DNA of 64,000 bases, from NCBI GenBank assembly GCA_963749595.1, contig CAVVNJ010000010.1, positions 65,223-129,222 of the forward strand. The letters are read 5' to 3'. The stretch comes from Candidatus Woesebacteria bacterium (lineage in GTDB: Bacteria > Patescibacteriota > Microgenomatia > UBA1400 > UBA1396). A model generated the notes under the pieces. That model did not search any database, was not told the origin of the DNA, and saw only the letters and a program-made list of their open reading frames with translations. The position numbers and the translations under genes were made by a program. Of the stretch, positions 3,813-63,292 are shown in pieces (within the stretch, counting starts at the first letter, position 1; each line of letters opens with the position of its first letter).

Positions 3813-3862
3813 TATACCGAGAGCTAATCGTTTGGGTCGCCTGATAGAACGTGAAGTCTCAC

Positions 3863-22101: not shown

Positions 22102-23121
22102 ATGTATTTCCTCAAGGCTCTTAATCTCAAAGAAAAACGCGTCCTGTTGCGCCTGGACCTTGATTTGCCGGAAAACGCCGATGGCTTTGATACCACCCGC
22201 CTGGAAGCCGGCGCCGGAACACTGAACTTTATTCTCAAGCGCGGCGCGGCCGCCGTCCACGTTATTGGCCACCGCGGTCGTCCGGATGGTAAAGTCGTCA
22301 AGAAGCTATCGCTTCAGCCTATTACCGATTTGCTAATCGCCATGGTGCCGCAAAAATATCGCGAGAAAGTTACCTTCGGCGACAACCTGCGTTTTGATCC
22401 CGGCGAAGAAAAAAACACCAAAACTTTTGCCAAAACTCTTGCCAAAGGTCACGACATTTACGTTAATGACGCTTTTGCCACTGCCCACCGTGAGCATGCC
22501 TCGATGGTTGCGTTGCCTTACCTTTTGCCCACCGTCATGGGTCGCCAGTTTGAAAAAGAAATCAAGGTTTTGCGCAAGATCGCCCATTCACCCAACCGCC
22601 CGTACACCATCATTCTCGGCGGCGGCAAGGACGACAAACTCGAATACATCGATCGCATGTTTGATAAAGCCAACGTTTTTTTGATTACCGGTGCCTTGGC
22701 CATCAATCGGAAAGAGGAGCTGGAGAAAAAGTACCGCAAAGTGATCGTCGCTGATTTGCTGCCGGATAATCTTGATATGACGCTGGAGTCGCTGGAGCAG
22801 TTTGACCGTTTCATCAAAGCCTCCGAAACCGTGGTCTGGAACGGCCCGGTCGGCAAATACGAAGACAAGATTCATTCGGCCGGAACGATTTTCATTGCCA
22901 ATTCGCTGTCCCGATCCAAGGTTTTCTCGGTTCTCGGCGGTGGCGATACCGAAGCGGCAGTCGACTTGCTCGGCTTTAAACGCGATCAGTTTTCCCACGT
23001 TTCTACCGGCGGCGGCGCCATGATGGAGTTGTTGGCCGATGGCACCCTGGCCGCCTATGAGGCGATCAAGGAGAGCCAAGGCAATTTTGCTTGGGAAAAG
23101 AATTTAGAGTTTGTCCTCTAG
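22102..23121 (+). CDS. pgk: Phosphoglycerate kinase (short form)
   Basis: KRVLLRLDLDLP, IGHRGRPDG, NDAFATAHREHAS and STGGGAMMELL. Confidence 0.9.
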   Translation: MYFLKALNLKEKRVLLRLDLDLPENADGFDTTRLEAGAGTLNFILKRGAAAVHVIGHRGRPDGKVVKKLSLQPITDLLIAMVPQKYREKVTFGDNLRFDPGEEKNTKTFAKTLAKGHDIYVNDAFATAHREHASMVALPYLLPTVMGRQFEKEIKVLRKIAHSPNRPYTIILGGGKDDKLEYIDRMFDKANVFLITGALAINRKEELEKKYRKVIVADLLPDNLDMTLESLEQFDRFIKASETVVWNGPVGKYEDKIHSAGTIFIANSLSRSKVFSVLGGGDTEAAVDLLGFKRDQFSHVSTGGGAMMELLADGTLAAYEAIKESQGNFAWEKNLEFVL

Positions 23122-35626: not shown

Positions 35627-36562
35627 TTGGCTCAGAGGATATATTTCCCTAACATGGAAAAATATCAAGAGCTTGGGCTTCCGGAATACAATATTCCTGA
35701 AAATACTGGTGTGATTCAACCACTTGAGGAAGGGATTAGAAGTGGGGAAATATTATTTGAAGGTGATCATTTCTTGGGCGTTTGTGCCGCTCCTCTCCGC
35801 CCCCACACCTATGGAAAACACGATGTCTTGTGGTTTATCTCGAGGGAAACGGGTGCCTTGGCCTCCAATTGGAACAATCTTCTACGGGATGAAGCGTTAA
35901 TTATCCAAATTGAGAAAGCATTTAGTTTACGGCAAGAAAAAGACGTCTCCCTGAGGCTATATTGTCACGATACCGTGCGGTCGATTCGTTATCCCCTAGA
36001 CAGTTCCGTTCTACTTGATAGGAACATTCAAAGTATTCCGCAAGCCCACATGCATATCGCTGAGGGAATCTCTAGCCCGCCGCCAGATCGAGTTTCCATC
36101 ATTGGGGCCGATTCTCCCAATTTTATCTATAAGTTGGCAGTAATTTTTAACCATTCTCAGGAGCTATTTTCAAAATGGTTAGTTGAACACAATGTTGACT
36201 TCGGCAAACCATTCTCGTATATCCAGAAAGTTGGACTGACCAATGCGGTTAGAGTACAGCGGACAGTTTTTGAGTTTGAGTCCCTATTGTTTGCATTAAA
36301 AGGTGCTGATGGACTAAAACAACAACTGGAGCCAATCTGGTACGCATTTGTTGCTTCCTTAGAGGACAACAAATTTTCTTACCCTGAATTGTCGGTTTTT
36401 ATGAAAACCAGCTACTCGCCAAACTTGGCCTTCCTAATTCCAACAGTTAACGATAATCGATTGTACAATCTTGACACACAAAAGACCTATGTTTTTGCCG
36501 GAACGATCTCTTCCCCAGTTGAGTTATTAATGAAAGGCGGCGGATGGCTGAACAGAATCTGA
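35627..36562 (+). CDS. Hypothetical protein with a HIT-like histidine motif
   Basis: 311 aa with IPQAHMHIAEG. Overlaps the start of the downstream guanylyltransferase gene. The start codon is uncertain (TTG 35627 or ATG 35654). Confidence 0.5.
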   Translation: MAQRIYFPNMEKYQELGLPEYNIPENTGVIQPLEEGIRSGEILFEGDHFLGVCAAPLRPHTYGKHDVLWFISRETGALASNWNNLLRDEALIIQIEKAFSLRQEKDVSLRLYCHDTVRSIRYPLDSSVLLDRNIQSIPQAHMHIAEGISSPPPDRVSIIGADSPNFIYKLAVIFNHSQELFSKWLVEHNVDFGKPFSYIQKVGLTNAVRVQRTVFEFESLLFALKGADGLKQQLEPIWYAFVASLEDNKFSYPELSVFMKTSYSPNLAFLIPTVNDNRLYNLDTQKTYVFAGTISSPVELLMKGGGWLNRI

Positions 36563-37662
36563 AGGTATCAAATAATATTTTCGCAGTAATTTTGGCCGGA
36601 GGAGGAGGAACAAGATTATGGCCAGCCTCAAAAGAGAAACTCCCCAAACAGTTTCTGAAACTCAACGGCCCCATCACCATGACCCAGGCAACTATGAAGA
36701 GGCTGTTGCCATTTGTTCCAATAGAAAACATTATCCTTGTGACCAATGAAAAGTACGCGGATGAAATAAAGAGGGAGTTGCCCGAGTTGCTAGAGGACAA
36801 CATAATTTATGAGCCAGAAAAAAAAGACACAGCTCTGGCAATGTTGGTTGGAGCGCTGGTGGCGCGCTCAAGAAATCCGGATGCCGTTATTGTAAATGGC
36901 GCCTGCGACCATATTGTGGAGAATATCGATCTATTTATCAATACCATGAAGGATGCAATCTCTATTGCCAGCAATAGTGAAAATCTTGTTGCCGTCGGAA
37001 TTGTTCCGACAAGACCCGACACTGCGTTTGGATACATACAAAGCGGCAAACCAATAACAGTTAAGGGTATATCACGCAAGATTTACGAGGTTTCCTCATT
37101 TCGTGAGAAACCTGATTATGATGTTGCCAAGGAATATGTTGAAAGCAAACAATATTATTGGAATGCAAACATGTACGTCTGGCATGTTGAGACATTAATA
37201 CAAGCTTTCCACAAATACTGTCCAGATGTGCTAAAAAGGGTTCAACCGATTATTAATGCTGATTTTATCTCCATCAAACAGCATCTTCCGAAGATCTATC
37301 AGGATTTTCCTTCCATCTCAATAGATTATGCCATCAGCGAAAAAACGGACAATCTCTTGCTTATCCCGGGAAATTTCGGTTGGAATGACATTGGCGACTG
37401 GAAAGTAGTATATGATCTGCAGCCACATGATGCTAATGGCAATGCTACGATGCCCAATTGTAGTTCAGATGAAGCCATGTTTATTAACAGCCGGGGAAAT
37501 CTAGTTTGGAACAGTAAAAAGAAGATCGCATTACATGGATTAAACAATCTGGTGGTTGTTGATACTGGCGATGTAATAATGATTTGTAAGAAAGATGAAA
37601 CCCAAAAAATAAAAAAAGTTGTTGAGTTGTTAAAAACACAGGGAAGATTGGAATATCTCTGA
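36544..37662 (+). CDS. manC: Mannose-1-phosphate guanylyltransferase-type sugar nucleotidyltransferase
   Basis: FAVILAGGGGTRLWPASKEKLPKQFLKL and GYIQSG...FREKPD. Confidence 0.85.
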   Translation: MAEQNLKVSNNIFAVILAGGGGTRLWPASKEKLPKQFLKLNGPITMTQATMKRLLPFVPIENIILVTNEKYADEIKRELPELLEDNIIYEPEKKDTALAMLVGALVARSRNPDAVIVNGACDHIVENIDLFINTMKDAISIASNSENLVAVGIVPTRPDTAFGYIQSGKPITVKGISRKIYEVSSFREKPDYDVAKEYVESKQYYWNANMYVWHVETLIQAFHKYCPDVLKRVQPIINADFISIKQHLPKIYQDFPSISIDYAISEKTDNLLLIPGNFGWNDIGDWKVVYDLQPHDANGNATMPNCSSDEAMFINSRGNLVWNSKKKIALHGLNNLVVVDTGDVIMICKKDETQKIKKVVELLKTQGRLEYL

Positions 37663-37668
37663 TCAAGA

Positions 37669-38307
37669 TCAGTACGAGGACAATACGTTTCCAGAAACAT
37701 TCTCTTTTTCTTTGCCTACGGCATAGGCGCTATGTTCCAAAAATAGCCAGGTATGAAAGTCAGACAAGGTCGAAATCCTTCTTATCTTTTCTTCAAGCTT
37801 TTTAACGCTTTCAGCCTCTCTACCTTTTCTTTCCCGCAGCACTTCTTCGCTGATACCAATGTTCTCTGAAGTAAGGAAGTCAAGTTCATACCCATCATTC
37901 GGAGTCAAGCCAAATACCCATTCGAAAGCCGCTTTGGTCCTAGCCATATGAAATTCCGAGGTGATGACTAATAACCGTTTTAAATTTCTTGGATCGGTGT
38001 GAATAACTCTGGCGAAGTAGGCGTTTCCGATGGTATCGTAGGAAGAAGTTTCCAATAATATTTTTTCAGGGCTGATACCCCGGCTGGCTAAATAATATGC
38101 CGCTGCTTGTGATTCAAAAATGGGAAAACCCTGTGGGTTCAGCGGTGGTGCTTTGTGGGTAGTGCCCGCGCTCAAGGTAATGAAAAATGGATTCTCGCGG
38201 TTACTTTTTAGTGCAAGTTCTAACCTTGCTTTGGTCCATTCCGGCAAACCACCTTTGTCTGTCAGACCACCACCGGGTATAAGAATTGCCTGATATTCTT
38301 TCCTCAC
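37669..38307 (-). CDS. YdcF/DUF218 family protein
   Basis: ILIPGGGLTDKG...LLVITSEFHMARTK. Confidence 0.75.
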   Translation of the reverse strand: MRKEYQAILIPGGGLTDKGGLPEWTKARLELALKSNRENPFFITLSAGTTHKAPPLNPQGFPIFESQAAAYYLASRGISPEKILLETSSYDTIGNAYFARVIHTDPRNLKRLLVITSEFHMARTKAAFEWVFGLTPNDGYELDFLTSENIGISEEVLRERKGREAESVKKLEEKIRRISTLSDFHTWLFLEHSAYAVGKEKENVSGNVLSSY

Positions 38308-38373
38308 ACCATCATCTTATCATAACTATAATTAATCCCCGCCAACAACGTCTTGATTTGTTTTTGATGCCTT

Positions 38374-39444
38374 TCAAAAGCCGTGAGTTTTGGATTTCTT
38401 GCCTCCTTTTTCAAAATAAGAAATTAAATGTGGGTCTATTAATTTGCCTCTTTTTTTCATCAAAAGCAACCTTCTTAATTTGCCCCTCAGAATTTCGGAT
38501 TGGTAAAAAGGACGGATATATCCTAAACGGCTTAATTGGCCAAGCACCGTCTCCGCCTCTTTAAACTGACCTAATATGTCCAAAGATCCAGAAATTCCCT
38601 CAGTGATGGTTGCCACTCTATCGTTGGAAAAGCCGATTTTCTCTACCAACAGTTGAGCTTTGTTAATCGTTATAAATAATTTGTCCTTGTCATTCCGGTG
38701 TGCATATGAAAATAGCAGCATTCGAAATAGCTCTGATTTTGTGACATCGTCTGCAGAATCTATGATATTTTCAGCATAATCAATTACTTTTTGCCATTGA
38801 CTAGTGGCGTAATAGTTCGTGACCACATTTAAATGGGTAAGATTAATTATTTCATTATCTTTTGTTGCTTCTCCAATGCTTAAGGTTTTTTCATTGTATG
38901 ATCTTGTGGCCTCAATAATATCTTCTCCCGTGCTGATGTCCGATAATATCTTTGCCTTTTCAACACAAATATTTCCATAGACTCCGATAGCCCCGGAACA
39001 TCTCGATGACAAGTCAGTTTCAAAAAGATTTTCGTAATACTCTGCCACTATAAAAGCGTTATGGATGTCACCACCCTCTCTAAGTGATCTGATAATCTTT
39101 GGTGCCATGGGAATCATATCGCCGTTTATTACCACCAAACACTCGTTGGCTTGTTCCTCGCAGAAGCCTTTTTTGGTTAATAAGTCCCGCATGAGACTTT
39201 CCCTAAGAAGAATGGCGTCAATTCTGGAGATTGCCAATATCTTGCAAAATGAATTAAGCTGTTTTTGACTGAAAATCCTCTTCCCATTTATCACTTTTGA
39301 CAAAATGCTAGGATCCATATCCCCAAAACCAAGATCCTCCATCATTTCCAGAGATAATTTATTGAGGGAGCTTCCGTTAATAAACACAATTCTATTGCCA
39401 ACTCTTTTATAATATCTTTGCAATAAATTATGTAGCTTTTTCAT
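38374..39444 (-). CDS. Putative HTH regulator with a long helical-repeat C-terminal domain
   Basis: AT-rich 356-aa ORF. The N-terminus DPSILSKVINGKRIFSQKQLNSFCKIL is XRE-HTH-like. The rest is predicted all-helical by eye. Confidence 0.55.
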   Translation of the reverse strand: MKKLHNLLQRYYKRVGNRIVFINGSSLNKLSLEMMEDLGFGDMDPSILSKVINGKRIFSQKQLNSFCKILAISRIDAILLRESLMRDLLTKKGFCEEQANECLVVINGDMIPMAPKIIRSLREGGDIHNAFIVAEYYENLFETDLSSRCSGAIGVYGNICVEKAKILSDISTGEDIIEATRSYNEKTLSIGEATKDNEIINLTHLNVVTNYYATSQWQKVIDYAENIIDSADDVTKSELFRMLLFSYAHRNDKDKLFITINKAQLLVEKIGFSNDRVATITEGISGSLDILGQFKEAETVLGQLSRLGYIRPFYQSEILRGKLRRLLLMKKRGKLIDPHLISYFEKGGKKSKTHGF

Positions 39445-39548
39445 TATCTTTAATTAAATAAATATCTGAATCTTACATCAAAATCAGGTAGGAGTACACT
39501 AATGGTTGCGATAGTTTGATCGATAGTGATCTGATTAAATAGAAAAAT

Positions 39549-39611
39549 ATGTTTGGATTAGCCTTATTGATTGATCTGATTGCAGTTACCAACGCGATTT
39601 GCTCGCCTTAG
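39549..39611 (+). CDS. Possible 20-aa hydrophobic peptide ORF divergent from the regulator
   Basis: MFGLALLIDLIAVTNAICSP. The tgattaaat box at 39532-39540 lies 8 nt before the ATG, matching the window's leaderless spacing. Confidence 0.25.
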   Translation: MFGLALLIDLIAVTNAICSP

Positions 39612-39652
39612 TCCAATAGAAACAATCAATAAACGCTTCCCAGAAATTTATG

Positions 39653-39735
39653 TGCCGGCTGAAGGATTCGAACCTACGTAGGCTATTGCCAACAGATTTA
39701 CAGTCTGTCCCCGTTGACCGCTTGGGTAAGCCGGC
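39653..39735 (-). tRNA. tRNA-Tyr (GTA)
   Basis: Acceptor GCCGGCT/AGCCGGC, anticodon loop cTGTAAa, long variable arm, and T loop TTCGAAT with one U-U mismatch in the T stem. No encoded CCA. Confidence 0.85.
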
Positions 39736-39789
39736 GATAGGGCAAATTATAGCATGATTTTTCTCGAGAAAATTGGTTCCCTAGTCGCC

Positions 39790-40176
39790 TTAACGATTAT
39801 TTGGCTTAGGTTTGATTCTTTGAACCAGACTATGGGCAAATAGCATCATGATGTCGATCCGGCCCAGTTCCAAAAAAAGCGCTTCCAAGGAGCGGGCATT
39901 TTTCTGATCGCGGTAATTTCCGGCAACACTTTCCAAAGCATCAAGGTCGACAACAACTTCCTCTTTACCGACCGAAACTTTCATTTGCGAGCCATGCTGC
40001 TCCCGCAGTTCGGCGATCATTTTATTGACCGTCTCCCAGGCAGATTCAACTCCCGTTGTTTCCGGCTTATGTTCGAAATCCGGGACCGGGAGAACTTCTT
40101 TCAATCGGGTGTTATGGGAAACCACCAGCCGGCCAAAACCTTCGGCAATCGTGGATTGATCTTTTCTTTTTCTCAT
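39790..40176 (-). CDS. Hypothetical protein
   Basis: 128-aa ORF with no recognised motif. Confidence 0.55.
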   Translation of the reverse strand: MRKRKDQSTIAEGFGRLVVSHNTRLKEVLPVPDFEHKPETTGVESAWETVNKMIAELREQHGSQMKVSVGKEEVVVDLDALESVAGNYRDQKNARSLEALFLELGRIDIMMLFAHSLVQRIKPKPNNR

Positions 40177-44000: not shown

Positions 44001-44071
44001 AGGGCTATGATGTAACGGTAGCATGAGGGTCTCCAAAACCCTTCGTCTAGGTTCAAATCCTAGTAGCCCTG
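44001..44071 (+). tRNA. tRNA-Trp (CCA)
   Basis: Acceptor AGGGCTA/TAGCCCT, anticodon loop cTCCAAa, T loop TTCAAAT. No encoded CCA. Confidence 0.9.
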
Positions 44072-44124
44072 CTGACTATTGAATACCCATTGACACCTGT
44101 TGCTTATATGCAACAATATCCTAA

Positions 44125-44436
44125 GTGAAAAAGATTGTCGAAATCGACGAAAGGGCTAGTAAGGAACTCAGAACCTTCTCTCCAGAAATCCAAGCTAGAT
44201 TCGTCGCTCTGTTCGGCATTTTAGGTCAAGAAGGTTTTCTCAAGGAACCGTTTGCCAAGCGGCTCGATGACAAACTCTTTGAGGTTCGAGTCAAACATGA
44301 AGGACAGTGGCGAGCGGTTTATGCCTACGTCGATAAAAATAAAGTAATTATTTTGTCGGCCTTTCACAAAAAGACGCAGAAAGCGCCGAAACAAGAATTA
44401 AAGAAAGCCGAAAAACGTTTACAGGAGTATTTATGA
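44125..44436 (+). CDS. Gp49/HigB-like RelE-superfamily toxin
   Basis: FSPEIQARFVALFGIL...LFEVRVKHEGQWRAVYAYVDKNKVIILSAFHKKTQK. Confidence 0.75.
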   Translation: MKKIVEIDERASKELRTFSPEIQARFVALFGILGQEGFLKEPFAKRLDDKLFEVRVKHEGQWRAVYAYVDKNKVIILSAFHKKTQKAPKQELKKAEKRLQEYL

Positions 44437-44720
44437 AGAAACAACCAAAAACCATCTCGATTAAAGAATTTTCTCAGGGATTTAGCCAGGAACAAAAAAG
44501 AATCGTCGAAGAAGAAACCCGATTTTATTTTTTACTGACTTCTTTCAAAGAAGCCAGGGAAAAGAAGGGTTTGTCTCAGGAAGAACTGGCTCGAAAGGCC
44601 AAAGTGAACCGTACTACCCTCAGCAAAATCGAGTCCGGTCTCCGCAATGCGACGATCGACACTCTAGATAAGTTGGCGACAGCCATGGATATGAAGCTGG
44701 ATGTTAGATTGAGGGCTTAA
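44433..44720 (+). CDS. XRE-family HTH antitoxin (HigA-like)
   Basis: KGLSQEELARKAKVNRTTLSKIESGLRNATIDTL. Overlaps the toxin by 4 nt. Confidence 0.8.
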   Translation: MKKQPKTISIKEFSQGFSQEQKRIVEEETRFYFLLTSFKEAREKKGLSQEELARKAKVNRTTLSKIESGLRNATIDTLDKLATAMDMKLDVRLRA

Positions 44721-44797
44721 TTTTCCGAAGTAGTTCCAACACGCTTCATTAGTCCCCACAACAGCCAAACTAATTTTTCTTTGCTATCATAGCCGCA

Positions 44798-45136
44798 ATG
44801 ATTCTAACTAAATCGCAACCATTTTCGCTTGAGGAAATCGAACAGTTAAAAGAACAGTTCGAGGTTTACATTAAAACGGTTATTGATGTGGAAAAGAAAG
44901 TTTGTTCGGCCGGCATGGATCGACATTTTGAGGGTGAAGAAATCCTATTGGGTCAAGGTTCAAAACAGAGTGATGTTTGGGGTGGTGGAATCGATATCGA
45001 GACTAAGGAGATAGACTTTAACTCACTGATCAATGTTCGACCCAGGGATAACAATTCCAAAAACGAAATCCAGAACGAAACTATTAGAGGGCAATACAAA
45101 AAGCTGACCGAATATTTTTTCCAGAAATTATTATGA
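44798..45136 (+). CDS. Small conserved hypothetical protein (possibly DUF5674-like)
   Basis: 112 aa. The tgctatcat box lies 7 nt before the ATG. The family name is from memory only. Confidence 0.5.
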   Translation: MILTKSQPFSLEEIEQLKEQFEVYIKTVIDVEKKVCSAGMDRHFEGEEILLGQGSKQSDVWGGGIDIETKEIDFNSLINVRPRDNNSKNEIQNETIRGQYKKLTEYFFQKLL

Positions 45137-45411
45137 CTGACACATCACTATTGGCGGGATCACTTTCCAACGACCTTTTTCGGGTAGTTAATCTGCAGCA
45201 GCGGGGCTCGATGTTGGCCGCACAACGTTTTTTACAAGAGGCTAAGCGCTGGTCCGGACCGCTGGCGAAAAAAGCGGATAAGAAATACATCCGCACTATT
45301 GCCGAGCACATCAATCTAGCTGATCCGGAAGAAACAATGTCGATGGCTGAAATAGAAAAATATCTGATGTTTGGGGTTTTGTTACAGAATTACACGCTAC
45401 ATAATGCGTAG
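45133..45411 (+). CDS. Hypothetical protein
   Basis: 92-aa ORF with an ATGA overlap with the upstream gene. Confidence 0.5.
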   Translation: MTDTSLLAGSLSNDLFRVVNLQQRGSMLAAQRFLQEAKRWSGPLAKKADKKYIRTIAEHINLADPEETMSMAEIEKYLMFGVLLQNYTLHNA

Positions 45412-45483
45412 ATTCCAATACGTTCCACCAGTCCCGCTAAGCGACTATTTTCCATAAGATCTCCGCTCGGGTATGATGGACAC

Positions 45484-46095
45484 ATGGCAAAAACAAGAAT
45501 TCTTGATACCTCGTTAACAAGCCTGATTTTTCTATCCCTATTTTTTATTTCAGGAGTCGGTTTTGGATTGATTGCCAGAGGATCTTTTTGGCAGCAAAAA
45601 AACAGCGCGGCGGAGTCCGCCCAATCTGCGCCGGAAGAAGTAGTTCTAAATTCCGACTTAATTTACCAAAATGACGAATATGGTTTTTCATTACAATACC
45701 CGGAGGGGTCAATAATCGATACTGCGCCTAATCGGGATCGTATCCTGAAGATCGAGCCTCCGGCAGAATACACTCTTGCCGAAACTCAACTAACTATTCG
45801 GACCTTGGCAGAGCCCTTTGGCGAGTCTATCAATCGACTCATCAAGCAAGATAAACAAGAGGCGAGCAATAATCTATATACCGGTGTGTTAGTTGCCGAG
45901 ATTGATGGCCTACCAGCGAAGAGATTTTATACCATTGTTTGTCCAGAAAGAGGCAGTTGTGAAAAAACGAATAAATATTATGTCAATGCTCAGGGAATCA
46001 CTTATATAATTACCACGACAACTTTTGTGGACGGAGGCAATACTTCAATTAACGAGGATGCAACAGAAAGAATAGTTAATTCTTTAGACCTTTAG
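45484..46095 (+). CDS. Hypothetical membrane-anchored protein
   Basis: TM segment LIFLSLFFISGVGFGLI, then a YQNDEYGFSLQYP domain similar to that of 40238-40897. Confidence 0.6.
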   Translation: MAKTRILDTSLTSLIFLSLFFISGVGFGLIARGSFWQQKNSAAESAQSAPEEVVLNSDLIYQNDEYGFSLQYPEGSIIDTAPNRDRILKIEPPAEYTLAETQLTIRTLAEPFGESINRLIKQDKQEASNNLYTGVLVAEIDGLPAKRFYTIVCPERGSCEKTNKYYVNAQGITYIITTTTFVDGGNTSINEDATERIVNSLDL

Positions 46096-54914: not shown

Positions 54915-56150
54915 ATGACTTGGCAGAGCGAGGTAATTCGTCAGGATTTTCCGATTTTATCCCGACAGGTTCATGGGCAGCCATTGATTTATCTCGATAA
55001 CGCGGCCACGACGCATAAACCGGAGGCGGTGATTGGAGCGATCAGCGATTACTATCGTCACCACAACTCGAATGTCCACCGCGGGAGTTCATACGTTGGC
55101 CGATGAGAGCACGCAGATTTATAGCGAGGCCCGGCGAGACGATCGCCGGTTTTTTTGGGGCGACAGCCGGAAGAATTGATCCTGACTCGCAACGCGACCG
55201 AGGCGCTCAACCTGGCCGCGCTGGGCTGGGGTCGGCAATGGGTTGAGGCCGGGCGACGCGATCGCGGTCACGATCATGGAGCACCACAGCAACTTTGTCC
55301 CCTGGCAGGAGTTGGCGCGGGAGAAGGGCGCTCAGTTCGTGGTTTTGCCGTTGACGGACGACGGTCGTTTAGACCAGACGGCCGCGCTGCAGATTATGGA
55401 TGAGTTAGGCGACAAATTAAAGGTCCTGGCGCTGACCCACGTTTCTAATACTTTGGGCACGGTCAACCCGGTCGAGAAGATCACCGCTCATCTTAGTCGA
55501 AAATCCTGGCGTTCCCGCGTGCTGGTCGTCGCCGATATTGCCCAAAGCGCGGCTCGCATTCCCCTTTCCTCGATTGCTCTGGGCGTCGACGCTCTGGCTT
55601 TCTCCGGTCATAAGATCTATGGTCCGATGGGCATTGGCGGTTTAATTGTTCAACGCAAGTCGATTGGCAGAGTTCCAACCGGTTTTGTTTGGCGGCGGCA
55701 TGATCGGCCGCGTCGGCGAATCCGAGACCACCTTACGCCGAGGATCTTCAGGATCGTTTTACCGCCGGAACTCCTGATGTAGCCAGCGCGGCCGGTCTGG
55801 CCGCCGCCTTCGACCTACTGAACAAAATTGGTCGGAGGCCGTTTTGGTCCACGAGCAGGAAATCACTCAGTACGCCTACGAGCAGCTTAGTCGGTTGCCG
55901 GAAATCGAGTTGGTCGGTCCCCAGCCGGACGCCGGACGACTCGGCTCAGTCGCTTTCCTGTATAAAGGAGTGCATGCCCATGACGTGGCTCAGATTCTCG
56001 ACCGCTCCGGGGTGGCGGTTCGCTCGGGTCATCACTGCACGATGCCACTGCATACTGTATTGTGGCTGGCCAGCGACCACCCGCGCCAGTTTTGCGATTT
56101 ATACCACAGCCGAGGAAATCGATGCGCTGGTGGCGGCGCTGATCAAGTAA
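54915..56150 (+). pseudogene. sufS: Cysteine desulfurase SufS-type, at least 8 frame changes
   Basis: LIYLDNAATTHKP, TRNATEALNL, IMEHHSNFVPW, LTHVSNTLGT, FSGHKIYGPMGIGG, FTAGTPDVA and RSGHHCTMPL are spread over frames 0,1,2,0,1,2,0,2,0. Confidence 0.8.
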
Positions 56151-56171
56151 AAAAGGTATTCCGACATTAAT

Positions 56172-56589: not shown

Positions 56590-57128
56590 TCATTGGCATT
56601 GGCAGTACCAATCCAGTGAAGCAAGCAGCCGTGGAGCAAGCGGTGCGGGCGGCGCATCAGCATTTAGGTCTTGCGGACTTACTCGATTTCCAAGCTCATG
56701 AAGTTCCCAGTGGAGTTCCGGCCCAACCATTTTCGGACGAAGAGACCAAGCGGGGAGCTCTTAATCGCCTGAGCGGAGTATTGTCTCTAAATTCGGCAAT
56801 CGATCTGGCCTTTGGTCTAGAAGGCGGGGTGGTCGAATTGGCGGACGGATTGTACTCGACAGTTTGGATTGCGGTTGGCAACCAAGCTGGAAAAATTGTC
56901 GTCGCGAACGGTATTAGATTTCCCTTGCCAGAAAACTTGGCGGTGGGAATTCGCTCCGGCCAGGAAATGGGCGCGGTCATGGACCAGCTTTGCCAAACCA
57001 CCGGAGTCAAACATGGGGCCGGTATGATCGGCGTGCTCACCGGCGGGGTAGTAACCCGCACCCAAGCTTATTCCGATCTGGCGCGGATTGCGTACGGCCT
57101 GTTTTTGCCGAATTTCACCGCCACTTGA
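56586..57128 (+). CDS. yjjX: YjjX-type (DUF84) inosine/xanthosine triphosphatase
   Basis: IIGIGSTNPVKQAAVEQAV...GMIGVLTGG. GTG start. Confidence 0.75.
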   Translation: MIIGIGSTNPVKQAAVEQAVRAAHQHLGLADLLDFQAHEVPSGVPAQPFSDEETKRGALNRLSGVLSLNSAIDLAFGLEGGVVELADGLYSTVWIAVGNQAGKIVVANGIRFPLPENLAVGIRSGQEMGAVMDQLCQTTGVKHGAGMIGVLTGGVVTRTQAYSDLARIAYGLFLPNFTAT

Positions 57129-57203
57129 CGCGATTCCCAATTCCAGCGCATACTGAATTTACCCAGATCTTGGGTTCGTTTGGATATAGCTGGAAGGAAA
57201 TTT

Positions 57204-58937
57204 ATGGCCATGGCCCGTCGAACAAGAAACTTTCTCCTGATCGGAGTTGTCCTTGCCTTGATTATTGCCGGTGCCGCGACCTTTTTTGTTCTGAATCGCT
57301 ATTTCCTGACCGGTCAGACTACCGAGCTGCGGGGCAGGGCCAGCATTGGCGCCATCGGTACCGCAACCATGACCCTGGATACCAAATCAAATACTCGCTA
57401 CGTCAACGATGAGTTTCCGGTCGATATTACTCTTGATACTGGTAACGGCGCTGTTTCGGCGGTCGCGGTTGGGTTGAACTATACCTCCAGTGGCACTGAT
57501 CCAGAACTGCAAATAGTCGATGCCGATCCAACCCGAGACGGGATCCAAATTATTTCTCACGTTGCAACGAATATGCCTGGTTGTTCCGATCAGATTAACC
57601 AAGTGAACCGGGAAACTGCTGACCCGCGCCACATCTTCATTGATTTCGGCGCCACTTGCGGCAGCGCTACCGGTTACAACAGTGGGGGTAAAAAAATCAT
57701 TGCCACCATTGTTTTTCGGGCCAATCGCGCGATCTCAAAGACAATTGAACACGATCCAACCAAGGCGATCGTAACATTGAAGGAGACCGGGGATGATACC
57801 CTCAACTCCGTGCCGGCCCTTACCATTAACGTGCTGGCCGATACTCAGGCACCGGTGGTCTCTTTTACTCCCGATTCATTGGTTGCGCGTACGGACGGAA
57901 AGCTAGCCACTAGTAGCGCCATGGTCCGTTTCGCCTGGAACGGCACTGAGCAACCAGCTCGTGCCGACGACACGGTTTTGCTTGATCAATACGTGGAATA
58001 TCAGTATCGCTTCAATGAGGCGGCCTGGCCGACTACCTGGGTTAGGGAAAAGACCGTTACCCGCAGCTTTGCCCATAATGTCACGACCGGCCACACCATT
58101 CAGGTTCGCGGACGCGACAAAAATGGCAATATCAGTGCGCCGATTTCAAAAAATTTCCTAGTGGACCTGTCGCCCAGTGTTAGTAGCATTGCTCCAACTC
58201 ATGGGGCCGCCGGTGCCCAGATTACCATAGCCGGATTCAACTTTGGCACAGTCAAAGGTTCGGTGTTTTTCGGCACGGCTGAAGTAACGGGAACTAATAT
58301 CATTAGTTGGACGAATGAGCGGATAGTTGTTAGGATTCCCGCCACTGCGGGATCGACAGTGAGCGTTAAACCCCCGGCGCCCCAGCCGGTTTCCAACACG
58401 GTGCCTTTCACGTTGGATACCAACCTGCGCTTAGTAATGAACTTGCAGGGCTTGGGTCAAGATCGAGGTCCAAAACAGGTGAGCGTAGTGGTTTCCCGCG
58501 GCACCTATGAGGCACGCTTCAACAACCTGGATGCGATCTGGGACGCGGCCGAAAACGCCTATGTGGTGGTGACACCGCCGCTGGCCGATACTGGTCTTGC
58601 TACCGCTGCCAACTTCGTAGTGTCGGTTAAAGAAATGTCGCGCCTACGCAAGAAGTTTACCGCCGTTTCGTTAACGCGCGGCTCACAAACCTCGGTGGTA
58701 AAGAAAGCTGCGGCTGATTTACAAAAGGTAGGTGACGTCAACAACGACAACAAGATCAGCGTGCTGGATTTCAGCGACATGGTGCGCCCTGGTAACTTTA
58801 CCGGCCTCGCGACGGCGGTAACCGCGGCTAACGCCAAGTATGATCTTAATGGCGATGGGTCATTGACTGCCGCCGACATCGCTCTGTTGTTGGCCAATTA
58901 CACGCAACTGGAAACCCCAGGCGATGCCGAGAAATAA
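57204..58937 (+). CDS. Membrane-anchored surface protein: cohesin-like domain + IPT/TIG domain + C-terminal dockerin
   Basis: A ggaagg RBS is present. The IPT/TIG segment is IAPTHGAAGAQITIAGFNFG. The dockerin repeats are GDVNNDNKISVLDFSDMV and YDLNGDGSLTAADIALLLANY (58731-58901). Confidence 0.75.
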   Translation: MAMARRTRNFLLIGVVLALIIAGAATFFVLNRYFLTGQTTELRGRASIGAIGTATMTLDTKSNTRYVNDEFPVDITLDTGNGAVSAVAVGLNYTSSGTDPELQIVDADPTRDGIQIISHVATNMPGCSDQINQVNRETADPRHIFIDFGATCGSATGYNSGGKKIIATIVFRANRAISKTIEHDPTKAIVTLKETGDDTLNSVPALTINVLADTQAPVVSFTPDSLVARTDGKLATSSAMVRFAWNGTEQPARADDTVLLDQYVEYQYRFNEAAWPTTWVREKTVTRSFAHNVTTGHTIQVRGRDKNGNISAPISKNFLVDLSPSVSSIAPTHGAAGAQITIAGFNFGTVKGSVFFGTAEVTGTNIISWTNERIVVRIPATAGSTVSVKPPAPQPVSNTVPFTLDTNLRLVMNLQGLGQDRGPKQVSVVVSRGTYEARFNNLDAIWDAAENAYVVVTPPLADTGLATAANFVVSVKEMSRLRKKFTAVSLTRGSQTSVVKKAAADLQKVGDVNNDNKISVLDFSDMVRPGNFTGLATAVTAANAKYDLNGDGSLTAADIALLLANYTQLETPGDAEK

Positions 58938-58947
58938 AGAAGGAGTT

Positions 58948-59814
58948 ATGTTGCTGCCCGTTTTAACCCTCCGCTCGGTTGTTGTTAGACTGATTAAACT
59001 GGGGGTTCTGGCTGGCCTGGTTCTGATACTGATTGGCAATTTGGTTCCTCAACCGCAGGCTTATGTCCAAGGCGGAGTCGGCAAAATATTGCTCCAACCG
59101 GCGACTGGAACCATGACCACCGGAACGGATTTTGCGGTTGATGTCATGATTAATACCGGCGGTCGGGCAATTTCAGCCCTGGCTTTTCGCCTACCGGTGA
59201 ATGCCGCTGACTTGCAGGCCACATCAGTTACCGGCAATGAGGCTATCGGAGGAGGTTGGTCTTACCCTTATAGTGCGACCACCGTTAATGGACAGAACAT
59301 TGTCGAGTTGATGGCGGTTAACAGTTCGACGACCGGCTATACTTCCGGTACCAACGTCAAAATTGCCACGATTGTTTTTCGGGCGACCTCAGCTTTTACC
59401 AATAAAGCTTTGACCTTTGATTTGACGCAAACGCAAATGTTGACTAAAGAAGCCACGCCGGTTGATATTTTGGGAACGGCGACTGGCGGAACCTATAGTG
59501 CCTCCGGAACGGCGGTTGCGCCCACCCCGACACCAACGCCAACCCCCACACCGACACCTGATCCGGATGCTACTCCCACCCCGACGCCGCTACCGACTCC
59601 CACTCCTGATACTACCGCTACGCCCACTCCAACACCGGACATTGGTATTGGTGGTGGCGATGACACTATTGGTGGTTCAACAGACACCACTGGTCAGCCA
59701 GCAATCACTCAACCGGTTCCGGAAACGGCCAGTCCAGGTGCGATGTTTGCCTTGGGCCTCGGCGGTTTTGGCTTGCTGGTCTTGGGAGGCTTTGCCTTCC
59801 GGCGCCGCAGCTAA
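58948..59814 (+). CDS. Cohesin-domain protein with a PT-rich stalk and a C-terminal sorting-signal-like anchor
   Basis: An aaggag RBS is present. The cohesin-like segment is TDFAVDVMINTGGRAISALAFRL...KIATIVFRA. The TPTPTP linker is followed by VPETASPGAMFALGLGGFGLLVLGGFAFRRRS. Confidence 0.75.
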   Translation: MLLPVLTLRSVVVRLIKLGVLAGLVLILIGNLVPQPQAYVQGGVGKILLQPATGTMTTGTDFAVDVMINTGGRAISALAFRLPVNAADLQATSVTGNEAIGGGWSYPYSATTVNGQNIVELMAVNSSTTGYTSGTNVKIATIVFRATSAFTNKALTFDLTQTQMLTKEATPVDILGTATGGTYSASGTAVAPTPTPTPTPTPTPDPDATPTPTPLPTPTPDTTATPTPTPDIGIGGGDDTIGGSTDTTGQPAITQPVPETASPGAMFALGLGGFGLLVLGGFAFRRRS

Positions 59815-59856
59815 GGTTAAACCTTCCAGGCGTGAGAATGGGCAAGATCTGATCTT
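59813..59856. repeat. REP-like element copy plus a small palindrome between convergent genes
   Basis: aaggttaaaccttccaggcgtgaga, then aagatc-t-gatctt. Confidence 0.6.
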
Positions 59857-61291
59857 AAGCGGAAAGCGGTTTCATCGTTGGAAACAGAATAACGTCGCGA
59901 ATTTTGGTTTGATTGGTCAGCAGCATTACCAAGCGATCAATTCCCAATCCCAAGCCACCGGTTGGCGGCATACCATACTCCAGCGCTTCAATAAAATCTT
60001 CGTCCAACGGATGTTTTTCCTCATCTTCGGTGCGTTCTTCCGCCCAGTACTGCCGCTGCAGGACCGGATCGTTGAGCTCGGTGTAAGCATTGCCCACCTC
60101 CCAGCCAAAAATGTAGGGTTCAAAGCGTTCGATTAAGCTCGGATCTTTCCGATGCGGCTTGCAGAGGGAAGTCGTTTCGCGGGGCATATCGGTCACAAAA
60201 GTCGGTTGAATCAATTTTGGCTCAACGGCCTCAAAAAGGGCAGCAATGCCCAGACCGCGTTTCCATTCCCCTGCGTACTCCAAGCCCTGTTTTTTGATCT
60301 CTTCGCGCAGCTGATCATCGCTTAATTGATCGACGTCAATATTGAGGTATTCCTTGATTCCGTCTTTCATTGGCAGCCGACGCCAGGCACCAGCCAACTC
60401 AATCGTCGTGCCTTGATACTCGAACCGCGTAGTGCCATGCACTGCCAGTGCCGCATTCTGGTAAATTTTTTCGGTCAGGGTCATCATGTCGGTGTAGTCA
60501 GCGTAAGCGGCGTAACATTCCATCATCGAAAACTCCGGGTTATGAGTCCGGTCAACGCCCTCGTTGCGGAAGTTGTGGTCAATCTCGTAAACCTTATCGA
60601 ATCCACCGACAATCAGGCGCTTAAGGTAGAGTTCATCGGAAATTTTCAGATATTGGGGAATGTCCCAGGCGTTAATGTGGGTCACGAATGGCCGGGCGTT
60701 GGCACCACCATACAAAGGTTGCAGGGTCGGAGTTTCCACCTCCAGAAAACCCGCTTCGTCCAAAGTTTTTCGCACCGACTGCATAATCGCGGTGCGCGCT
60801 CGGATGACATTTTTTACCGCCTCATTCAGATTTAAGTCCACATAGCGACGCCGGTACCGTTCTTCCTCGTCAGAAAGTCCGTACCAAGTATCGGGCAGGG
60901 GGCGAATGGCTTTAGCCAATAGTTCGATCCGACGCGCCAAAACACTGGGCTCGTTGGCTTGGGTCAAGAAGCGTTCGCCGGAAACGCGGAGAAAGTCGCT
61001 GGTTTGGAGCGACTCGACCTCGGCAAAATTATCGGTAGCGTCGGCCTTGCAGACAACCTGAATTTTTCCTGATTCGTCAATTAAATCGATAAAGCGAATT
61101 TTGCCGTGACCGCGTAGGGCTCGGATGCGGCCGGCAATCTGGACCGATCGGCCGTCGAGTTCTTCTAAAGCCTGAGTGTTGGTGTGAGTTTTGTGGGCTT
61201 CCTGGGGATAGGGATTGGTGCCGCGTTCGATTAATTCCTGGCGAACGTGGAGGCGGGATTGGCGGATGTCGTCGAGACGGGAAGAGGCCAT
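59855..61291 (-). CDS. lysS: Lysyl-tRNA synthetase (class II)
   Basis: Class II motifs FRNEG..., ...GGLGLGIDRLVMLL and an OB-fold N-terminus. Probable start MASSRLDDIRQ at 61291. Confidence 0.9.
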   Translation of the reverse strand: MASSRLDDIRQSRLHVRQELIERGTNPYPQEAHKTHTNTQALEELDGRSVQIAGRIRALRGHGKIRFIDLIDESGKIQVVCKADATDNFAEVESLQTSDFLRVSGERFLTQANEPSVLARRIELLAKAIRPLPDTWYGLSDEEERYRRRYVDLNLNEAVKNVIRARTAIMQSVRKTLDEAGFLEVETPTLQPLYGGANARPFVTHINAWDIPQYLKISDELYLKRLIVGGFDKVYEIDHNFRNEGVDRTHNPEFSMMECYAAYADYTDMMTLTEKIYQNAALAVHGTTRFEYQGTTIELAGAWRRLPMKDGIKEYLNIDVDQLSDDQLREEIKKQGLEYAGEWKRGLGIAALFEAVEPKLIQPTFVTDMPRETTSLCKPHRKDPSLIERFEPYIFGWEVGNAYTELNDPVLQRQYWAEERTEDEEKHPLDEDFIEALEYGMPPTGGLGLGIDRLVMLLTNQTKIRDVILFPTMKPLSA

Positions 61292-61342: not shown

Positions 61343-63292
61343 TTATCTGGTAGTTGATCCAGAAAGCTTATCAGCCCGCAAAACCTTGATGGCTTTTTGG
61401 ATTACTTCCTTTTGTTTCTCGGTGACAGGAACCAAGGTAAATCCCTTACCAAGGGGAACGATGATCAAAGCGAAGCCCTCATTTTCACCCATATTTTTTT
61501 CCGACCACCATTTCGGCGCGCCAAATATCGGATAGTTGGTATAGGGGTTATCTCCGTCAAAGGCACTACCCCAGCCTGAGCCGGGCTTATTTCCCCCGAC
61601 AATAACCGCTGGTTTTACCCTCTTTTGAATACCTTGGTAGGTAGACTGCAATCCAAGCAGAGGTTTTTCGTTGGAACCCCGTCCTTGAAGTCCATGCAGC
61701 ATAGTCATCGGTACGATTGATTTAGGACCCAAGTTTAGATAAATAGTGCCTAGTTCGGCTAGAAGTGGCACTCCAGCAGTTTGGGAAATATAGGTAGCGG
61801 GGGGAATCGGCAGACTGTCGACACCCTGTCCCACGGCGCGTTTCCACCCAGCCCCACGCAAGCTATCGGAAAGCAAGAGGGCTAGATTACGATCACCCAT
61901 GCTACCCATCATGGCCAAGAGACTATCGAGAATCTTTCGTCGATCATGTAAGTTGCCGGCGGTTTTTTCCATTACGTCCATCCAGGCAGCAAAAGAATGG
62001 TCGTCTTGACTGATTTTTTTCAGATTGCTTTTAAAAGCTCTGATTTGAGCAGCGCTTGATCCGTAGCGGAGATGGGCAAAAACTTCAATGGTAAGCGGCA
62101 TGCGGATTGCCTCGCCAGATAGGGTACTAAAATCCAAGTTGAGCTTGTTGTACGGAACTTCATAAGCATTGGCAAAGTAAGCACTTTGTGAGTCGCCGAT
62201 TTCCGGATAACTACTTATTGCTTTGGCCGTGCGCTTTTCCTTATCTTGTTGCTCTACCGGCGAGTCCTTTTCCGTCTTTGAGCGCACTGAACCGCCGCCA
62301 ATCTGCACTTGAATGGGCCCCTCTCGATGATAGGCTTCCTGAATCCGCTCATCGGTTGTGCCTTCGCTTTCAGTCTCGTCAAGTTTTTCGATCGCCTCTA
62401 AAACCAAATCAGCCACCTGCTGATTCATAAAGCCGTAATGAAAATTCTTTTCTGAATCAAGGATGATGCCTTGTTCCAAGGGATCGGTGGGGGGAAGTCC
62501 CAGTCTGGTGCCAAGCGAATCGGCCGGTTTTTTGCGATTAGAGCCTTTAGGAGTGCCGATAGCCACCAGTTCTTTGCCGGTATTCTCTACTCCCGAATCA
62601 TGATAATGGGAGGTAACCACTCCATCACAATCGATATCAATTGCTTGTCTGGCTCCATGCACCGGATCATTCTTGCTCCTGCCAGGGGGTTGGTGGAAGG
62701 CCTTAAGCGAATAGACCACCTTTCCATTGCGGTGGAAACGAATGGTTGCACCGTTGGCAATTAGTGGAACCTCCATTCCGCCGAGCATGTTTTTCCAGAT
62801 ATTTAGACCAGCTTCGTCCGCCGACCAACCAGGATGACCGAAATACTCGGAAACCATACCAACAACTTTTCCCTGTTCGTAAAGTGGGCGCAGAAACCTC
62901 TGGAATAAGGTGATCTGCTTGTCCAAATTAATGGACCGGGTCAAATTACCCGTATACTTTTTGACCCAGCCTTCAATTTCATCGCCGGTAAGAATAACTA
63001 CCGCCCGATCATCATCTAAGATTCGGCGTTGTAGTTGATCGATGGCTCGAATATCTGAGGAGGCGGAGCCAATATGCAGATCGCCCACTGGGTAGATGAC
63101 GGCTAAGTTATTCTTTAAGTGAAAAGGCCTACCTTTTGCGGGATCATTTCTTTCGGCTGACTCTTGAATGACAAACCATTCCAGCAGGGCCAGTTCTTCG
63201 GCAGAAAGTTCGCGCAACTGCCCAACCATCTTATCGACGAGTCCGCCAATAAAGGAGCGACGTTCGTTTTGTTCATTATTATTTCGTCCCAT
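61343..63292 (-). CDS. Large protein: calcineurin-like metallophosphoesterase domain followed by a degenerate copy of itself
   Basis: The first half has GDLHIG, LTGDEIEG and SHYHD. The second half aligns with it but reads FAHLRYG, LSDSLRG and VGGNKPG. Confidence 0.7.
   Translation of the reverse strand: MGRNNNEQNERRSFIGGLVDKMVGQLRELSAEELALLEWFVIQESAERNDPAKGRPFHLKNNLAVIYPVGDLHIGSASSDIRAIDQLQRRILDDDRAVVILTGDEIEGWVKKYTGNLTRSINLDKQITLFQRFLRPLYEQGKVVGMVSEYFGHPGWSADEAGLNIWKNMLGGMEVPLIANGATIRFHRNGKVVYSLKAFHQPPGRSKNDPVHGARQAIDIDCDGVVTSHYHDSGVENTGKELVAIGTPKGSNRKKPADSLGTRLGLPPTDPLEQGIILDSEKNFHYGFMNQQVADLVLEAIEKLDETESEGTTDERIQEAYHREGPIQVQIGGGSVRSKTEKDSPVEQQDKEKRTAKAISSYPEIGDSQSAYFANAYEVPYNKLNLDFSTLSGEAIRMPLTIEVFAHLRYGSSAAQIRAFKSNLKKISQDDHSFAAWMDVMEKTAGNLHDRRKILDSLLAMMGSMGDRNLALLLSDSLRGAGWKRAVGQGVDSLPIPPATYISQTAGVPLLAELGTIYLNLGPKSIVPMTMLHGLQGRGSNEKPLLGLQSTYQGIQKRVKPAVIVGGNKPGSGWGSAFDGDNPYTNYPIFGAPKWWSEKNMGENEGFALIIVPLGKGFTLVPVTEKQKEVIQKAIKVLRADKLSGSTTR

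Follow-up and report, generated by a model that had tools for sequence, protein, structure and literature searches.

A 64,000-nucleotide (nt) stretch of a Candidatus Woesebacteria contig (the window, in what follows) contains two neighbouring genes, referred to here as gene 1 (57204..58937, 577 amino acids (aa); start codon ATG 57204, stop codon TAA at 58935-58937) and gene 2 (58948..59814, 288 aa), whose products carry one dockerin and two cohesin domains between them. Coordinates are those of the window, and all features of the pair lie on the forward strand. The two genes constitute a conserved unit of a Microgenomatia-type bacterium of the Candidate Phyla Radiation (CPR). Going by gene order and domain content, it is on balance probable that their products form a non-cellulosomal cohesin-dockerin assembly on the cell surface that follows the anchoring-scaffoldin principle. 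The domain architecture of both proteins is held with high confidence, and a role in adhesion or host contact is put forward much more tentatively. A sequence-only reading of this DNA had already placed the two open reading frames (ORFs) at 57204-59814 and had taken them for a cohesin/dockerin gene pair of an episymbiont-type organism, possibly a self-assembling surface scaffold. The ORFs are borne out, and self-assembly is a possible reading since gene 1 bears both modules. The organism is indeed of CPR type, as the nearest named relatives of the lysyl-tRNA synthetase (LysRS) of the window come from Candidatus Woesebacteria (74%), Patescibacteria, Microgenomates and Shapirobacteria.

That the two genes may act together gains real support from their conserved adjacency. 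In all seven loci recovered with a gene 1-type gene (the window, L001/L003, L002, L017, L018, L020 and L021), a gene 2-type gene is located directly 3' of a gene 1-type gene, with a spacing that ranges from a gap of 7-13 nt to an overlap of 4 nt. The pair occurs in three neighbourhoods, i.e. with SufS-SufU-NTPase/LysRS genes, with Lgt (L018), and in a cluster with a gene of glycoside hydrolase (GH) family 39 and a further cohesin protein (L020 and L021). Within the window, local hidden Markov models (HMMs) find the sole dockerin in gene 1 and the sole cohesins in genes 1 and 2.

The two clusters with a GH39-family gene (L020, 2467-9293; L021, 1175-6739) have the order extra cohesin protein, GH39-family gene, gene 1-type gene, gene 2-type gene. 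The extra cohesin protein of L021 has a tail made up of IPTAG, a hydrophobic stretch and an arginine, and the gene 1-type protein of L020, at 474 aa, is a shorter form from which the TIG domain is missing. The gene 2-type proteins of both loci end in a transmembrane helix followed by a proline-rich cytoplasmic tail, with no sortase-type signal.

A word-indexed search returned six relatives of gene 1 at 63-73% identity, and the full gene 1 architecture was found in approximately 20-25 clusters (at 50% identity) among 1.84 billion representatives. In a scan of genome contigs, full-length gene 1 was present in only one GTDB species representative, and a metagenome scan with an alignment of the gene 2 cohesin gave no matches. 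A comparable gene order is seen in other Patescibacteria. In L004, L006 and L016 (Pfam matches above cut-off), of which L006 and L016 are from Saccharibacteria, a gene for an anchored protein with a single cohesin has one or more dockerin genes immediately upstream, and local HMMs give the same dockerin-then-cohesin order in L005, L007, L011 and L022-L025. The simplest case is L006, where a single secreted Big_7-dockerin protein is encoded ahead of a single cohesin protein that has a transmembrane anchor at its C-terminus. The dockerin proteins at these other Patescibacteria loci bear VWA, SdrD_B, Sortilin/BNR, fn3 and Big_7 modules and no carbohydrate-active enzymes (CAZymes). As far as gene order can tell, a dockerin gene upstream of an anchored cohesin gene looks like a general patescibacterial grammar for surface display. 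At the dockerin loci of Armatimonadota, Prevotella and others (L009, L010, L012-L015) there was no adjoining cohesin. In L004-L007, L011, L016 and L022-L025, the dockerin and cohesin genes often share overlapping stop and start codons.

Judging from orthologues and layout, the most likely start codon of gene 2 is ATG 58948 and not the alternative in-frame ATG 58924, which would give a protein of 296 aa. The exact 577-aa product of gene 1 is present in two independent assemblies (the NCBI/ENA contig and a Logan assembly), and in the other assembly the gene 2 product is likewise 288 aa long and starts 11 nt past the gene 1 stop; the 296-aa form was not found among recorded proteins. Orthologues of gene 2 start 7-13 nt past the gene 1 stop and align from the methionine of ATG 58948, and the layout in L001 is alike (stop-GGGAGG-AT-ATG). 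The 14-nt overlap with gene 1 that the sequence-only reading had assumed is therefore probably not real, whereas the ribosome-binding site that it had given to gene 2 is: a Shine-Dalgarno sequence, AAGGAG, is located at 58940..58945, inside the 10-nt spacer behind the gene 1 TAA. Since this spacer holds nothing other than the Shine-Dalgarno sequence, co-translation of the two genes is suggested. Gene 1 itself is preceded by a Shine-Dalgarno-like GGAAGGA run, 5 nt upstream of its ATG. Further upstream, a consensus scan gave a promoter-like TTGACG-18-CATACT (57125..57154), which is weak evidence, and a promoter and terminator scan of the region yielded site counts not above those of shuffled sequence.

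The gene 2 product begins with a predicted signal peptide (aa 1-38, 58948..59061) that would be cleaved at PQA|YV; the family keeps [ST]-[QH]-A|Y-[VLT]-x-G-G behind the hydrophobic segment, and the AlphaFold2 (AF2) model has a helix at aa 8-32. The cohesin domain follows at approximately aa 42-188 (59071..59511). A profile of the gene 2 family matches solved cohesins (6kgc at E=1e-6, 4ums and 1ohz), homologues have precomputed matches to PF00963, and the domain is modelled with a predicted local distance difference test (pLDDT) score of 87-97 (aa 40-190). In a Foldseek search of the model, the 50 best PDB matches were all cohesins, headed by CohA2 of C. acetobutylicum (template modelling (TM) score 0.81, root mean square deviation 2.8 A). 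By its profile matches and by the fold of the model, which agrees with the nine-stranded beta jelly-roll of cohesins, this domain is a cohesin, and it is nearer to the compact type I cohesins than to those of type II or III (TM-score 0.55 for the ScaE cohesin, 2zf9). Behind the cohesin lies a Thr/Pro-rich linker (aa 191-231, 59518..59640; 41 aa, 80% of which are T or P), read from the sequence, which is common to all gene 2 family members and has a low pLDDT, as expected of disorder. The cohesin and the (TP)n stalk that had been proposed for gene 2 thus both hold. A Gly/Thr-rich spacer (aa 232-256, 59641..59715), likewise read from the sequence, precedes a tail that resembles a sorting signal (59716..59811) and consists of VPETA (59716-59730), 23 hydrophobic residues (59731-59799) and RRRS (59800-59811); AF2 predicts a helix at aa 264-287. 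Two long ORFs that overlap the linker region (59462-60136 on the forward and 59493-59690 on the reverse strand) are most likely by-products of its repetitive ACN/CCN codons rather than genes.

In gene 1, a transmembrane helix precedes a domain of cohesin fold, which is followed by an Ig-like, a TIG and an X-module-like beta domain and lastly by a dockerin. The anchor, cohesin-like, TIG and two-repeat dockerin parts of this order had been named in the sequence-only reading, and Pfam, HMM and fold comparisons agree on the three domains. The dockerin (aa 510-566, 58731..58901) is matched by Pfam Dockerin_1 (PF00404) over aa 510-562 with 33.2 bits, against a cut-off of 22.9. It contains two calcium-binding repeats (58731-58784 and 58839-58901), the loops of which read DVNNDNKISVLD (58734-58769) and DLNGDGSLTAAD (58842-58877). 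Among 22 representatives of the gene 1 family, at 30-63% identity, no exchange is seen at positions 1 and 12 of either loop (D511, D522, D547 and D558), and conservation at N516 and D551 reaches 90% or more. The invariance of the loop aspartates indicates that the dockerin is under selection, which argues for a working dockerin. The protein ends in a conserved C-terminal extension, NYTQLETPGDAEK (58896..58934), in which N565, Y566, T567, L569, E570, T571, G573 and DAEK are invariant in seven close orthologues while Q568 and P572 vary; across the 22 representatives L569 never varies and G573 is conserved to 90% or more.

Directly N-terminal to the dockerin, AF2 places a domain of beta strands (aa 402-500, 58407..58703; pLDDT 53-81) that resembles an X-module. 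A profile of this domain and the dockerin (gene 1 aa 400-577 and nine relatives) was searched against the PDB, and its three best matches were X-module/dockerin structures of CipA (2b59_B, 9e-7; 3kcp_A, 3e-6; 5g5d_B, 1e-5), the alignment covering gene 1 aa 468-565, i.e. from the end of the X-module through both calcium-binding repeats. Type I dockerins matched at 1.7e-4 or worse, and in the dockerin part only. Given that the match to the X-module/type II dockerin of CipA is the stronger, the label 'type-I-like' that had been attached to this dockerin is better dropped, and the C-terminus of gene 1 is better termed a probable X-dockerin dyad.

At the other end of gene 1, the cohesin-fold domain (aa 52-215, 57357..57848) is a paralogue of the gene 2 cohesin, and the Pfam scan returned no Cohesin match for it. 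It shares 28% identity with the gene 2 cohesin (BLASTP, E=2e-7), and an HMM built from the cohesins of the gene 2 family matches it with E=2e-15. The best Foldseek match of its AF2 model is the cohesin-FN3 double module of GH84C from C. perfringens (2w1n, E=8e-10), followed by the isolated cohesins 6kgc (CaCohA2) and 2vo8 (TM-score 0.67). The model of gene 1 has a mean pLDDT of 65.9, with about 64-86 in the cohesin domain. By sequence comparison and by predicted fold, the N-terminal domain is a cohesin, despite the missing Pfam match. It is separated from the dockerin by approximately 290 aa of Ig-like, TIG and X-like domains. The first of these, a middle beta domain (aa 216-320, 57849..58163), has no Pfam match and low model confidence (pLDDT 43-83); it is probably Ig/FN3-like, as the model suggests, and the Foldseek alignment of the cohesin plus this domain to the 2w1n double module spans 277 columns. 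The IPT/TIG domain (aa 324-400, 58173..58403) is matched by Pfam TIG (PF01833) over aa 324-389 with 30.9 bits, against a cut-off of 20.9, has a pLDDT of 81-93, and matches domain D of CGTase through the family profile (E=4e-14).

The N-terminus proper of gene 1 consists of an Arg-rich n-region and a hydrophobic segment read from the sequence, FLLIGVVLALIIAGAATFFVL (aa 10-30, 21 aa; 57231..57293), within a helix that AF2 places at aa 4-33. This segment would be either a signal anchor or a long signal peptide. It is followed by a juxtamembrane motif, TELRGRAS (57321..57344; family consensus FDxRxRAS), which stands out by its conservation in the 22 representatives, R43 and A46 being invariant and S47 at least 90% conserved. 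A similar motif, QQExR[ST][RK]A, precedes the cohesin in other Patescibacteria proteins in which the cohesin comes first. The FDxRxRAS-type motif may be a lineage-specific signal for processing or sorting. Motifs behind the helix were also seen in L004, L005, L007, L008, L011, L018, L020, L021 and P0017/P0018, and no further ORF of the window carries a motif of the TELRGRAS type. A signal peptidase I site at RGRA|S was considered and is doubtful, as many relatives have K, Q, N or P at position -3.

Taken together, these features suggest the following arrangement. Gene 2 would be the anchor: exported by its signal peptide, it would be kept in the membrane by VPETA, the hydrophobic stretch and RRRS, upon which a sortase would probably link it to peptidoglycan, and its Thr/Pro stalk would reach through the wall and present one compact cohesin on the outside. 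The partner docked onto it would be gene 1, an all-beta stalk protein that ends in a calcium-binding dockerin. By plugging into the gene 2 cohesin, the X-dockerin of gene 1 would tie this protein to the cell surface, which would place a row of beta domains of about 500 aa and a second cohesin there, with the N-terminal cohesin and the Ig-like domains exposed. The exposed domains could then bind another copy of gene 1, some other protein with a dockerin, or a ligand that a partner cell displays.

The closest known system, by analogy, is that of the anchoring scaffoldin ScaE of Ruminococcus flavefaciens together with the X-dockerin proteins and adaptors that partner it, although the present pair has no CAZymes. 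ScaE is a sortase-anchored protein with a single cohesin that binds the X-dockerins of ScaB and CttA, and cttA is located directly before scaE in the gene order scaC-scaA-scaB-cttA-scaE (PMC4081043; PMC12484212). Gene 2 resembles ScaE in combining a signal peptide, one cohesin, a Thr-rich linker and a C-terminal sortase-type signal, and its presumed partner gene, with an X-module-like domain and a dockerin at the C-terminus of its product, lies directly upstream, as cttA does before scaE. The two systems differ in that the gene 2 cohesin is type I-like (CaCohA2 being its best fold match) whereas that of ScaE is of type III, and in that the present pair has no carbohydrate-binding modules (CBMs) or CAZymes, has VPETA instead of LPXTG, and belongs to a CPR bacterium instead of a Firmicute; binding is moreover established for ScaE and only proposed here. 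Gene 1, in turn, is similar to the adaptor scaffoldins of the ScaC group in having one cohesin and one dockerin per chain (PMC4081043), from which it differs in its N-terminal transmembrane helix or leader, the FDxRxRAS motif, the long insert between the two modules and the lack of known enzyme partners.

The best sequence match of gene 1 aa 468-565 is, as described above, the X-module/type II dockerin of Clostridium thermocellum CipA. That dockerin binds the cohesins of SdbA, OlpB and Orf2p (PDB 2b59, 3kcp), and the C. thermocellum anchoring proteins attach via SLH domains. The present pair differs in that a sortase-type signal takes the place of SLH anchoring and in that the fold of the gene 2 cohesin does not belong to the type II class. 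A further likeness is to the non-cellulosomal modules of the C. perfringens toxin-complex enzymes, Archaeoglobus fulgidus and anaerobic methanotrophic (ANME) archaea, which have no part in cellulose degradation either; the A. fulgidus cohesin 2xdh matches gene 2 with a TM-score of 0.73, and C. perfringens 2w1n is the best fold match of gene 1. Most modules of C. perfringens, A. fulgidus and ANME archaea are joined to enzymes or lie dispersed in the genome; the two genes described here, by contrast, are a dedicated and conserved unit of Patescibacteria that includes an envelope anchor. Cohesins and dockerins outside cellulosomes have been reported from all three domains of life, and for those of ANME archaea an involvement in contact between cells has been proposed (PMC9012536). 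Literature searches on CPR, Patescibacteria and Saccharibacteria turned up no description of a cohesin-dockerin system.

A number of observations weigh against gene 2 being a sortase-anchored receptor with gene 1 docked onto it. The sequence-only reading had named searches with the Pfam families of all three domains as a check; Dockerin_1 and TIG are above their cut-offs, whereas Cohesin (PF00963) falls short on gene 2 by 0.3 bit (23.8 bits against 24.1), in addition to its missing match on gene 1. The dockerin region of gene 1 is poorly modelled by AF2 (pLDDT 29-58), to the extent that X-module packing and docking are unreadable. There are two cohesins for a single dockerin at the locus, which makes the partner ambiguous, and neither protein has a domain indicating a specific ligand. 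At the N-terminus of gene 1, the non-classic signal-peptidase site together with the 21-aa hydrophobic segment means that the protein may stay in the membrane. As for the gene 2 tail, its match to LPXTG_anchor (TIGR01167) is marginal (16.4 bits, cut-off 15.9) and comprises the hydrophobic and charged part only; the sorting motif begins with V, I, Q or M in place of L, and in the window it ends with A; and GlyGly_CTERM also scores just above its cut-off (15.7 versus 15.5 bits). Finally, Pfam scans of 52 window ORFs gave no member of a sortase or exosortase family in the 64-kb window, and the orthologous locus L001, of about 20 kb, has no sortase gene.

The tail is where an alternative survives best. 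Instead of a sortase substrate, gene 2 might have a plain membrane anchor, or a PEP-CTERM/exosortase or GlyGly-CTERM/rhombosortase signal, which is unlikely but deserves to be taken seriously. It would fit with the marginal LPXTG_anchor score, the GlyGly_CTERM score and the window's lack of a sortase, and with the P-E that the window motif shares with PEP-CTERM. In addition, P0011, P0014, L021 and L006 have a plain C-terminal transmembrane helix with a proline-rich cytoplasmic tail in place of the motif, which implies that the gene 2 C-terminus is an envelope anchor in every case. The specific signals fare less well. When the tails of eight gene 2 family members were scanned against NCBIfam, LPXTG_anchor was the sole model that matched repeatedly, in five of the eight (L001 at 15.9 bits, and the three matching tails besides those of the window and L001 at 13.5-15.7), whereas GlyGly_CTERM was found in the window tail alone. 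This leaves the GlyGly-CTERM reading without orthologue support, and it was set aside. So was the PEP-CTERM reading, since PEP_CTERM (TIGR02595) gives 9.7 bits against a cut-off of 16 and the Glu of the window's P-E-T is missing in orthologues (IPATA, QPVSG, VPTSG, LPVSG). Exosortase and rhombosortase systems are, furthermore, known from diderm bacteria. The family motifs (VPETA, IPATA, QPVSG, VPTSG, IPVTA, LPVSG twice, MPVSG, LPETA and LPVAG) conform to x-P-x-[ST]-[GA], at a fixed distance ahead of the hydrophobic stretch in 10 family members, which also counts against a non-sortase tail. Of the two signals named in the sequence-only reading, the tail thus fits an LPXTG-type sortase signal, at threshold, rather than PEP-CTERM. 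The sortase and further dockerin proteins that the sequence-only reading had proposed to look for were not found within the window, where a regular-expression scan of all ORFs for the sortase motif [LIVM]xTC also gave no credible match and no second dockerin is present; a sortase family is reported to be near ubiquitous in Microgenomates (PMC6744442).

Rather improbable, though compatible with several features of the pair, is a head-to-tail polymer in which the dockerin of one gene 1 molecule inserts into the cohesin of the next, yielding a calcium-dependent, non-covalent fibril with its base on the gene 2 cohesin. The cohesin and the dockerin are located at opposite ends of the Ig-like row in all of the roughly 20-25 clusters, the gene 1 and gene 2 cohesins are paralogous, so that one dockerin might recognise both, and a tandem of a cohesin...X-dockerin gene and a cohesin-only gene is found in L004, L005, L007, L008 and L011. 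The identity between the two cohesins is only 28%, however, and the AF2 model, poor as it is, does not dock the dockerin on gene 1's own cohesin. Moreover, known proteins with a single cohesin and a single dockerin, ScaC of R. flavefaciens among them, serve as adaptors whose two ends differ in specificity, rather than as polymers (PMC4081043).

A bolder version of the fibril, in which gene 1 polymers on sortase-anchored gene 2 constitute a Patescibacteria-specific, pilus-like appendage for reaching hosts and FDxRxRAS is the signal that releases the subunits, is more improbable still. A CPR surface structure of Ig-like subunits, the Pam pilus, has been described from Saccharimonadia and Microgenomatia and is thought to contact hosts (bioRxiv 10.64898/2026.03.03.709456). 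It resembles the present pair in its Ig-like make-up and its occurrence in CPR bacteria, and differs in being assembled by donor-strand exchange with chaperones (bioRxiv 10.64898/2026.03.03.709456). Identity with the Pam pilus was rejected, as neither cohesin nor dockerin is mentioned for it (bioRxiv 10.64898/2026.03.03.709456).

About as improbable as the simple polymer is an arrangement in which gene 1 is kept in the cytoplasmic membrane by its N-terminal helix, and its dockerin binds wall-linked gene 2 either on the same cell, as a strut, or on a neighbour, which would lead to aggregation. The hydrophobic segment has the length of a transmembrane helix, the residues at position -3 of RxRA|S (often K, Q, N or P) are unsuited to signal peptidase I, and gene 2 relatives by contrast have a classic site of the A-x-A type. 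Against retention, the juxtamembrane motif is so well conserved as to suggest a site of processing or recognition.

It is also quite improbable that the two proteins do not bind each other at all, their adjacency reflecting shared cohesin ancestry or co-regulation and their partners being encoded elsewhere. The data comprise 64 kb of the genome, and further dockerin or cohesin genes may exist, as the additional cohesin protein in the L020 and L021 clusters illustrates; cohesin-dockerin specificity, besides, is unreadable from sequence. Adjacency in seven out of seven loci and three different neighbourhoods speaks against this explanation, and in the simpler Saccharibacteria loci L006 and L016, where one or two dockerin genes are followed by one cohesin gene, pairing between neighbours is the most economical assumption. 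A minimal system of the cellulosome kind for the degradation of polysaccharides, for which only the GH39-family gene and further cohesin protein of L020 and L021 would speak, is very improbable, given that there is no GH or CBM in genes 1 and 2 or among the scanned window ORFs, that the GH39 proteins themselves lack a dockerin (local HMM), that each protein has one cohesin and there is no multi-cohesin scaffoldin, and that the dockerin proteins of related loci bear adhesin-type modules and not CAZymes. Cellulosome identity was accordingly rejected, the single dockerin of the window not being on an enzyme, and the sequence-only reading was right in calling the pair non-cellulosomal and in noting that no glycoside hydrolase is nearby.

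The ultra-small CPR bacteria or Patescibacteria are believed to live in attachment to other microbes. Their known surface structures are few, the main examples being type IV pili and the Pam pili reported not long ago. If the docking of gene 1 onto anchored gene 2 is true, a compact unit of a dockerin protein and an anchored cohesin would provide a plug-and-socket mounting for proteins on the CPR surface, one that recurs in several classes of Patescibacteria, with dockerin proteins that bear adhesin-type modules. It would also extend the sortase-anchored, ScaE-type design well beyond the cellulolytic Firmicutes. Non-cellulosomal cohesin-dockerin pairs, anchoring scaffoldins and X-dockerin partners are already established; the gain would therefore lie in a new lineage and an enzyme-free context rather than in a new mechanism, with the FDxRxRAS motif and the possible cohesin-dockerin fibril as leads. 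The dockerin and cohesin modules are small (about 70 and 150 aa, respectively) and thereby suited to in vitro binding work.

Besides the pair, the genes of the window include dnaN, yidC, jag, DUF4012, PBP1, Lgt and genes of glycolysis. The window opens, at 124-5555, with a set of the replication-origin type (dnaN, yidC and jag/KhpB-R3H), behind which come an RNase H/RVT_3-like ORF and the gene of a DUF4012 protein. The SufS cysteine desulfurase upstream of the pair (54915-56170, forward strand) is spread over three frames (2, 3, 1), compared with an intact orthologue of 420 aa in L001, and a junction between frames is near a hairpin followed by a T7G4 run (~55131-55160). The Logan assembly, made from short reads of the same organism, has no fewer than 228 aa from the C-terminal part of SufS in a single frame, from which it follows that at least one of the frameshifts is probably an assembly indel and not the mark of a pseudogene. 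The source assembly thus probably contains indel errors. The finding of the pair is unaffected, since gene 1 is identical and gene 2 equal in length in both assemblies. Further indel errors, or real disruptions, may be present in the leucyl-tRNA synthetase, which is split into two ORFs on the reverse strand (6253-7920 and 8012-8590; the N-terminal catalytic part and the rest), and in a short phosphoglycerate kinase (339 aa; 22102-23121, forward strand) whose profile match comes in two stretches.

On the reverse strand at 61343-63292, adjoining LysRS, a 649-aa protein without a Pfam match is encoded; its counterparts in L001 (663 aa), L017 (680 aa) and the Logan contig likewise adjoin LysRS and are followed by an FAD/NAD-binding reductase. 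Two stretches of low GC content (36001-40000 and 44001-46000; 0.40-0.43 versus ~0.50-0.54 elsewhere) adjoin tRNA-Tyr (39652-39735) and tRNA-Trp (44001-44072), respectively, and hold a ManC-type nucleotidyl transferase, a DUF218 gene and several ORFs without a family match; they may be acquired islands. Lastly, L001/L003 (CAZEEI010000006.1, GCA_964511175.1), the one GTDB species representative with full-length gene 1, is labelled 'uncultured Pseudomonadales bacterium', a label that looks wrong, as its gene content and a LysRS 78% identical to that of the window are those of a Microgenomatia-type CPR bacterium. The labels 'uncultured Gammaproteobacteria' on L005, L007, L008 and L011 also accompany Patescibacteria-style proteins.

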